A stretch of 64,000 bases of DNA from Escherichia coli (GTDB lineage: Bacteria; Pseudomonadota; Gammaproteobacteria; Enterobacterales; Enterobacteriaceae), in the NCBI RefSeq assembly GCF_003334315.1, contig NZ_QOWR01000010.1, one strand, 5' to 3'. Of this stretch, positions 26,538-26,734 are shown piece by piece. Each line of letters starts with the position of its first letter. The first letter of the stretch is position 1. The position numbers were made by a program, and so were the translations under genes. A model generated the notes under the pieces. It was given only the letters and a program-made list of their open reading frames with translations, made no database searches and was not told the DNA's origin.

Positions 26538-26542
26538 AATGT

Positions 26543-26580
26543 CTGCCGCGTGATGGCTGTCACGCGGTATTTCGTTTCGT
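26543..26580 (+). terminator. Probable terminator after mdtP
   Basis: ccgcgtgatggctgtcacgcgg hairpin followed by tatttcgttt. Confidence 0.5.
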
Positions 26581-26616
26581 CACGTCAAAACTGACGACAG
26601 CCTGTTTTTCGTCAGA
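26574..26616 (+). promoter_or_regulatory. Candidate FhlA upstream activating sequence for fdhF
   Basis: Inverted-repeat-rich tcgtcacgtcaaaactgacgacagcctgtttttcgtcaga, 50-110 bp upstream of the sigma54 promoter element. Confidence 0.5.
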
Positions 26617-26667
26617 GTTTTGAATAAATAGTGCCCGTAATATCAGGGAATGACCCCACATAAAATG

Positions 26668-26684
26668 TGGCATAAAAGATGCAT
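26668..26684 (+). promoter_or_regulatory. Sigma54 (-24/-12) promoter of fdhF
   Basis: tGGcataaaagatGCat matches GG-N10-GC with TGGCA and TGCA elements, about 50 bp upstream of the fdhF ATG. Confidence 0.8.
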
Positions 26685-26734
26685 ACTGTAGTCGAGAGCG
26701 CGTATGCGTGATTTGATTAACTGGAGCGAGACCG

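Follow-up and report, generated by a model that had tools for sequence, protein, structure and literature searches.

The DNA analyzed here is a 64,000-nucleotide stretch of Escherichia coli, hereafter the window, and the feature under study spans the whole 197-bp gap between mdtP and fdhF (26538-26734). Both genes belong to a plus-strand row formed by ytcA, mdtN (21992-23023), mdtO (23023-25074), mdtP (25071-26537), fdhF (26735-28882) and yjcO. The open reading frame 25071-26537, together with annotation, places the TAA stop codon of mdtP at 26535-26537 (+), at the end of the ytcA-mdtNOP row. The segment 26300-27000 was found in 5420 of 5426 complete E. coli genomes and shares 100% identity with MG1655-type genomes, in which the flanking genes are annotated as mdtP and fdhF. 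The window is E. coli K-12 DNA.

fdhF codes for formate dehydrogenase H (26735-28882, +) and was detected as two open reading frames, 26735-27154 and 27203-28882, that lie in one frame. The ORF finder split the gene because of an in-frame TGA (selenocysteine) at 27152-27154, which lies within a SECIS_2 element of Rfam (27147-27201, +, 87 bits), as fits the selenoprotein formate dehydrogenase H. A first-pass annotation, made from the sequence alone, had named both genes correctly, as shown by the identity with MG1655-type genomes, their annotation and the SECIS_2 element at the fdhF TGA. SECIS_2 was the sole Rfam match in fdhF itself, no Rfam family matched the mdtP-fdhF gap, and the RefSeq annotation of K-12 has no regulatory features over this gap. 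A minus-strand ORF of 63 aa (26560-26751), which overlaps the promoter described below and the start of fdhF, was taken as spurious. Elsewhere in the window, Rfam detected copies of the REP-type repeat naRNA4 at 44-320, 29670-29853 and 40388-40459, including a pair just past yjcO, and the small RNA sraL at 47698-47838.

The sigma-54 promoter of fdhF

We observed a -24/-12 element, TGGCATAAAAGATGCA, at 26668-26683 (+), with GG at 26669-26670 as -25/-24 and GC at 26681-26682 as -13/-12. Within tGGcataaaagatGCat (26668-26684), GG and GC are exactly 10 nt apart, and the mismatches of TGGCATAAAAGATGCA are confined to the less conserved positions -20 and -15. The element is correctly oriented, and 51 nt separate its end from the fdhF ATG. 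A scan with a promoter matrix, which the first-pass annotation had proposed as a check, gave the element 13.5 bits on the RpoN matrix and the 5th rank among approximately 128,000 window positions. Four other positions of the window match the matrix as well as or better than this site does, and several of these matches are probably intragenic. Likewise, the pattern TGGCAYN6TGCW occurs once in the 64 kb, against 0.96 matches expected, and at least once in 63 of 100 shuffles, that is, at chance level. The element had been called textbook. It is real, at 26668-26684, with GG-N10-GC spacing and a sequence equal to the sigma-54 ChIP-seq motif, but the statistical weight of the motif by itself was overstated. 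No sigma-70-like promoter was found in 26300-26900. We regard the promoter as real because of its position and orientation, the lack of a sigma-70-like rival and its conservation across species, and not because of the pattern alone.

Published data point to the same site. For E. coli fdhF, the motif given by sigma-54 ChIP-seq (PMC4591121) is the 17-mer GTGGCATAAAAGATGCA, and the published coordinate corresponds exactly to 26667-26683 once the offset between K-12 sequence versions is applied. The mdtP-fdhF spacer is a gSELEX target of the RpoN holoenzyme (PMC8743547). In Salmonella, the orthologous element TGGCATAAAACATGCATA is bound by sigma-54 in ChIP-chip assays, and fdhF is listed at 29 in a microarray of sigma-54-dependent expression (PMC3844500). 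Furthermore, reporter assays in Proteus mirabilis revealed lower activity of the fdhF promoter in fhlA and rpoN mutants (PMC7658346). Sigma-54 occupancy and rpoN dependence, both taken from the literature, support the view that the gap carries the sigma-54 promoter of fdhF. Older E. coli literature reportedly also found fdhF expression to be rpoN-dependent. Hence rpoN-independent expression, the outcome against which the first-pass annotation had set its reading, is contradicted both in relatives and, by these older reports, in E. coli itself.

Given C-12 at 26682, transcription would start at about 26694 and produce a 41-nt leader (26694-26734, +) with a Shine-Dalgarno sequence, GGAG, at 26723-26726. 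A distance of 41 is listed for fdhF (PMC4591121), in agreement with a start near 26694, and ACTGGAGC of the leader is kept across genera. An inverted repeat at 26674-26686 and 26702-26714 was taken as a chance occurrence; it straddles the predicted start and so cannot form in the mRNA.

Among the other matches of the window to the RpoN matrix, TGGCATGATTCTTGTA at 62960-62975 (-) is the published sigma-54 promoter of pspG, the second real one in the window, with 13.6 bits, about equal to fdhF. The matches at 1203-1218 (-), 24980-24995 (-) and 35372-35387 (+) also score at least as high as the fdhF promoter, the second of them being antisense within the 3' end of mdtO. Intragenic sigma-54 sites have been reported across the genome, and these three could be further examples or could match by chance. 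The yjcS-alsK spacer is listed as a target of the RpoN holoenzyme and NtrC by gSELEX (PMC8743547). No obvious -24/-12 element was seen upstream of yjcS (~19280-19500), where the best nearby match to the RpoN matrix reached 9.2 bits (19162-19177).

The upstream palindromes and their conservation across genera

Two sites, delimited by their repeats and by conservation, lie upstream of the promoter. Site 1, TCGTCA-CGTCAAAACTGACGA (26577-26597, +), is centered at approximately -107 from the presumed start and combines an outer palindrome, TCGTCA N9 TGACGA, with an inner one, CGTCA N4 TGACG. Site 2 (26606-26623, +) consists of TTTTCGTCAG (26606-26615) followed by AGTTTTGA, and repeats TCAAAACTGACGA of site 1 in inverted form with one base more. 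The repeats pair TCGTCA at 26577 with TGACGA at 26592, CTGACGA at 26591 with TCGTCAG at 26609, and TCAAAACT at 26585 with AGTTTTGA at 26616. Counted upstream from the -24 element, this palindrome-rich segment occupies 52-91 bp; the first-pass annotation had announced such a segment at 50-110 bp, a range that proved roughly right. Short inverted repeats are common (13 were listed in 261 bp). Within 66 bp there are three TCGWCA half-sites where 0.09 would be expected (P about 1e-4), and three copies of TTTCGT (26570, 26575 and 26607) where 0.03 would be expected (P about 6e-6).

Published descriptors of FhlA sites did not single out this segment. The best match in the gap to the idealized 16-bp palindromic FhlA consensus, CATTTCGTACGAAATG (quoted in PMC4987338), was 9/16, and approximately 400 window positions were equal or better; the likeness of the fdhF site to CATTTCGTACGAAATG is confined to the half-site level, with TTTCGT present three times. 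The window was also scanned with a 14-bp FhlA weight matrix, which derives from 13 sites (PMC7658346). The best local match of this matrix, CGTCAAAACTGACG at 26583-26596, scored 8.4 bits, and the matrix, which discriminates little, was dropped as evidence because many unrelated window positions outscored the fdhF site, the top one with 13.3 bits. The poor consensus match and the indistinct matrix score say more about the weakness of the descriptors than about the site.

Conservation was assessed on fdhF loci from one genome per species, picked with a degenerate pattern for the N-terminal peptide TVCPYCASGCKI. Since a coding-sequence pattern alone was used, the choice of loci was blind to the promoter. 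TGG[CT]A-N7-TGC[AT] was present within 300 nt of the ATG in 84 of the 116 usable loci. For most of these promoter-bearing loci the RpoN matrix gave 13 bits or more, a score of which 0.016 matches would be expected by chance per locus (300 nt). They span Enterobacteriaceae, Hafniaceae, Morganellaceae and others; among the loci compared, the -24/-12 element is missing from the homologues of Pasteurellaceae, Budviciaceae and Burkholderiaceae. Some fdhF-like genes of Enterobacter sp. BIGb0383, Leclercia and Pluralibacter (loci L012, L015, L084 and L044) code for the same N-terminal peptide, but no -24/-12 element in their upstream 300 nt is convincing, the matrix matches peaking at 8.9-10.7 bits. 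Leclercia and Pluralibacter carry such a gene as a second copy beside a promoter-bearing one. Such copies are presumably regulated differently.

When 22 genera were aligned with the promoter as anchor, a discontinuous footprint emerged. Columns at least 90% identical to E. coli are 26577-26587 except 26580 (A in most of the 22 genera), 26592-26597, 26609-26614 and the TGGCA and TGCA cores of the promoter, while most flanking columns are approximately 10-50% identical. TCGTCAG of site 2 is conserved at 80-90% or more. The core palindrome was found in 76 of 82 distinct sequences, at 85-88 bp from the T of the -24 element in 58 of these 76 (85 bp in E. coli). Site 2 also lies at a fixed offset of +26 from the core in 58 of the 76. 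The remaining distances fall into classes of 73-77, 106-111 and 117-120 bp that differ by roughly whole helical turns, a pattern that would fit a face-of-helix constraint for looping, as judged by an informal test on related sequences. The spacer between enhancer and promoter (26624-26667, +) contains two blocks recognized in the conservation profile, CCGTAA (26635-26640) and CC-CAC (26654-26659), which are 60-90% identical over the 22 genera and have no role or factor assigned. A candidate IHF site in this spacer, where TATCAGGGAATGA agrees by eye with WATCARNNNNTTR at 8/9 specified positions, was rejected, as its TTR part is not kept in other genera.

The enhancer outlined by this footprint would thus comprise a TCG(T/A)CA-CGTCA-N4-TGACGA core, TTTCGTCAG 26 bp further on, GTCAY approximately 24 bp upstream and an 85-bp arm to the promoter, a description that is cleaner than the published consensus. 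Conservation, spacing, a half-site shared with the hyc and hyp genes and the literature all support identifying the palindromic segment as a probable FhlA enhancer. The first-pass annotation had read it in the same way, and this is the accepted view in the literature. Reviews assign FhlA as the activator of fdhF and formate as the signal (including PMC4987338).

The mdtP hairpin and its overlap with the conserved fdhF upstream region

A terminator scan detected a hairpin at 26544-26569 (+) that starts 7 nt past the mdtP stop codon. Its stem (26544-26554 and 26559-26569) comprises 11 pairs, 6 of them G-C, closed by the loop GGCT and followed by the tail TTTCGTTTCG. A minimum free energy (MFE) of -19.6 kcal/mol (z = -3.1) was computed for the hairpin, whose U-tract is not continuous (UUUCGUUUCG). 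Terminator-like matches occur once per 600 bp, which is about equal to the 0.7 +/- 0.7 obtained in shuffles. mdtP lies upstream of fdhF in Escherichia, Salmonella enterica subsp. arizonae, Kluyvera, Pseudocitrobacter, Superficieibacter and one further Enterobacteriaceae isolate. Over 9 representative mdtP-linked sequences, pairing is kept in 92% of the alignment cells of the stem and 4 pairs have changes on both sides, including G:C to A:U replacements in Salmonella and Kluyvera cryocrescens. The observed covariation score was not reached in any of 500 shuffles. Furthermore, the 47 nt upstream of the enhancer have a median MFE of -18.1 kcal/mol in 12 mdtP-linked loci compared to -6.1 kcal/mol in 45 others (P = 5e-7 with phylogeny ignored; the loci compared are phylogenetically related, and P-values overstate their independence). 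It is on account of the covariation and the association with mdtP that we assign the hairpin to mdtP, as its likely intrinsic terminator. The first-pass annotation had also proposed an mdtP terminator here, and these data back that reading. The hairpin may reasonably be presumed to shield fdhF from mdtNOP read-through. Such insulation would make sense for a sigma-54 promoter, which stays silent unless its activator is present, since read-through would escape this control.

The terminator had been described as immediately adjacent, insulating fdhF from efflux-operon read-through. Instead of merely abutting the conserved region upstream of fdhF, it overlaps the GTCAC/TTTCGT part of that region. 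GTCAC at 26559-26563 (+), approximately -135 from the predicted start, belongs both to the 3' arm of the hairpin and to a conserved element upstream of fdhF. Of 72 distinct sequences, 56 carry GTCAY at 22-25 bp upstream of the core palindrome. Among the 60 that lack mdtP the count is 44, and one of these is from Enterobacter cloacae, whose fdhF is preceded by a divergent gene. The GTCAC columns are 60-80% identical over the 22 genera, and GTCACG is repeated 20 bp downstream, at 26579, inside site 1. The T-rich tail of the hairpin (26570-26580, +) contains two overlapping copies of TTTCGT, the left half of the FhlA consensus CATTTCGTACGAAATG. Like GTCAC, TTTCGT is conserved even in genera without mdtP or the hairpin.

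In genera where mdtP does not precede fdhF, a conserved block GTGAYGRAAWTTCAACC-N3-GTCAC lies approximately 45-20 bp upstream of the core (L013, 5440-5480; L052, L068, L081 and L094). It combines a TGACG-type half-site with the same GTCAC as in E. coli. The GTGAT...GTCAC arms of E. coli are 11 bp closer to each other than in the genera with this block, and form the hairpin.

It is possible, though we hold it only tentatively, that terminator and enhancer share nucleotides, with GTCAC (26559-26563) and TTTCGT (26570-26580) serving as activator contacts. If so, the Escherichia/Salmonella/Kluyvera lineage would have built a terminator from a pre-existing enhancer half-site, and transcription of mdtNOP could disturb FhlA occupancy directly, the two elements being coupled and not simply insulated.

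A model for the gap and its relation to known systems

We consider it very probable that the gap holds a terminator, an FhlA enhancer and a sigma-54 promoter in series, operating by the standard enhancer-dependent mechanism. The elements themselves, their conservation and fixed spacing, the covariation of the hairpin and the identity with published sigma-54 sites were computed here. The hairpin and its U-rich tail after the mdtP stop codon would end ytcA-mdtNOP transcription and, by our reading, protect fdhF from read-through. The cluster of TCG(T/A)CA and TTTCGT half-sites, presumed to extend over 26559-26623 and with its core at 26577-26615, would bind FhlA, a formate-sensing AAA+ activator. 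The -24/-12 element (26668-26683) would hold the sigma-54 RNA polymerase in a closed complex unable to open alone. Upon anaerobic build-up of formate, FhlA bound approximately 85 bp upstream would loop to the polymerase, and its ATP hydrolysis would open the promoter, allowing transcription from a start placed at about 26694. FhlA binding, sigma-54 occupancy, the sensing of and dependence on formate, and the dependence on rpoN and fhlA are taken from the literature.

Three other explanations were weighed against this arrangement. The one that is hardest to set aside concerns 26544-26569, which might serve mainly as an inverted repeat (GTGAT...GTCAC) that binds protein at the upstream end of the enhancer, its RNA fold being incidental. 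The persistence of GTCAY at the same offset in the 44 of 60 loci devoid of mdtP and hairpin speaks for it, as do the conserved GTGAYGRAAWTTCAACC that precedes GTCAC in Enterobacter, Lelliottia and Buttiauxella, upstream of a divergent gene, and the second GTCACG 20 bp downstream within site 1. Against these observations stand the covariation of the arms, with 4 doubly changed pairs and G:C to A:U replacements in two lineages, the near confinement of the strong fold to mdtP-linked loci (-18 vs -6 kcal/mol, P = 5e-7), and the position of the hairpin 7 nt past the stop codon with a T-rich tail behind it. We thus judge this explanation improbable as the main role of the repeat, although terminator and protein-binding roles of the region are not mutually exclusive.

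The palindromic segment could also be bound by another regulator, such as the paralogue HyfR or a nitrate- or molybdate-responsive factor, with FhlA acting elsewhere or indirectly. Such a regulator would account for the indistinct scores of the site with the published FhlA consensus and matrix, and NarL and ModE inputs on fdhF are mentioned in secondary literature. However, the half-site TCG(T/A)C(A/G) is common to the hycA-hypA FhlA region, the segment lies at a typical enhancer distance from a sigma-54 promoter (approximately 70-150 bp), reviews and citations of primary papers give fdhF to FhlA, and the Proteus fdhF promoter needs fhlA, all of which make another regulator very unlikely. Even less credible, to the point of being nearly negligible, is the idea that these motifs arose by chance in an AT-rich gap and have no regulatory role. 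It draws on the -24/-12 pattern being as frequent in shuffled as in real sequence of the window, and on the abundance of short inverted repeats (13 in 261 bp). It is already refuted by the cross-genus footprint, with promoter and enhancer cores kept in 22 or more genera while their flanks diverge, and by the sigma-54 ChIP-seq, ChIP-chip and gSELEX signals published for exactly this site.

The feature is already known: it is among the classic sigma-54 promoters and appears in genome-wide sigma-54 maps. fdhF has served since the late 1980s as a founding example of a sigma-54 enhancer-dependent promoter outside nitrogen metabolism. The promoter and upstream activating sequence of E. coli fdhF were reportedly described by the Bock laboratory between 1987 and 2000. 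The locus studied here is this same K-12 promoter and upstream activating sequence, since 26300-27000 is 100% identical and the -24/-12 17-mer equals the published motif (PMC4591121). There is no sequence difference from the published K-12 region, and our analysis adds the cross-genus footprint and the overlap of the hairpin with conserved elements upstream of fdhF. What is mildly new is the cleaner description of the enhancer, the conserved blocks of the spacer and an mdtP terminator that overlaps GTCAC/TTTCGT. The case also serves as a calibration, as a reader of the sequence alone was right on promoter, enhancer and terminator, a call that formal motif statistics alone would not back.

The closest relatives of this enhancer are those of hycA-hypA and hydN, which, like that of fdhF, carry TCG(T/A)C(A/G) and TTTCG half-sites upstream of TGGCA-N7-TGC promoters and respond, per the literature, to the same activator (PMC3844500, PMC4987338). 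TCGWCR occurs 3 times in the 130 bp upstream of fdhF (P = 0.007), 2 times upstream of hydN and 5 times in the 211-bp hycA-hypA gap (0.6 expected, P = 4e-4). The arrangements differ: fdhF has TCGTCA-N9-TGACGA with a third copy 12 bp further on, whereas hyc/hyp has five closely packed half-sites for two divergent promoters. More broadly, fdhF resembles the NtrC-dependent glnAp2 and the PspF-dependent pspA and pspG promoters, where a -24/-12 closed complex is opened by an AAA+ activator positioned approximately 70-150 bp upstream, through looping and ATP-driven opening (PMC3844500). It differs from the NtrC and PspF systems in its activator, its signal, formate, and the sequence of its enhancer.
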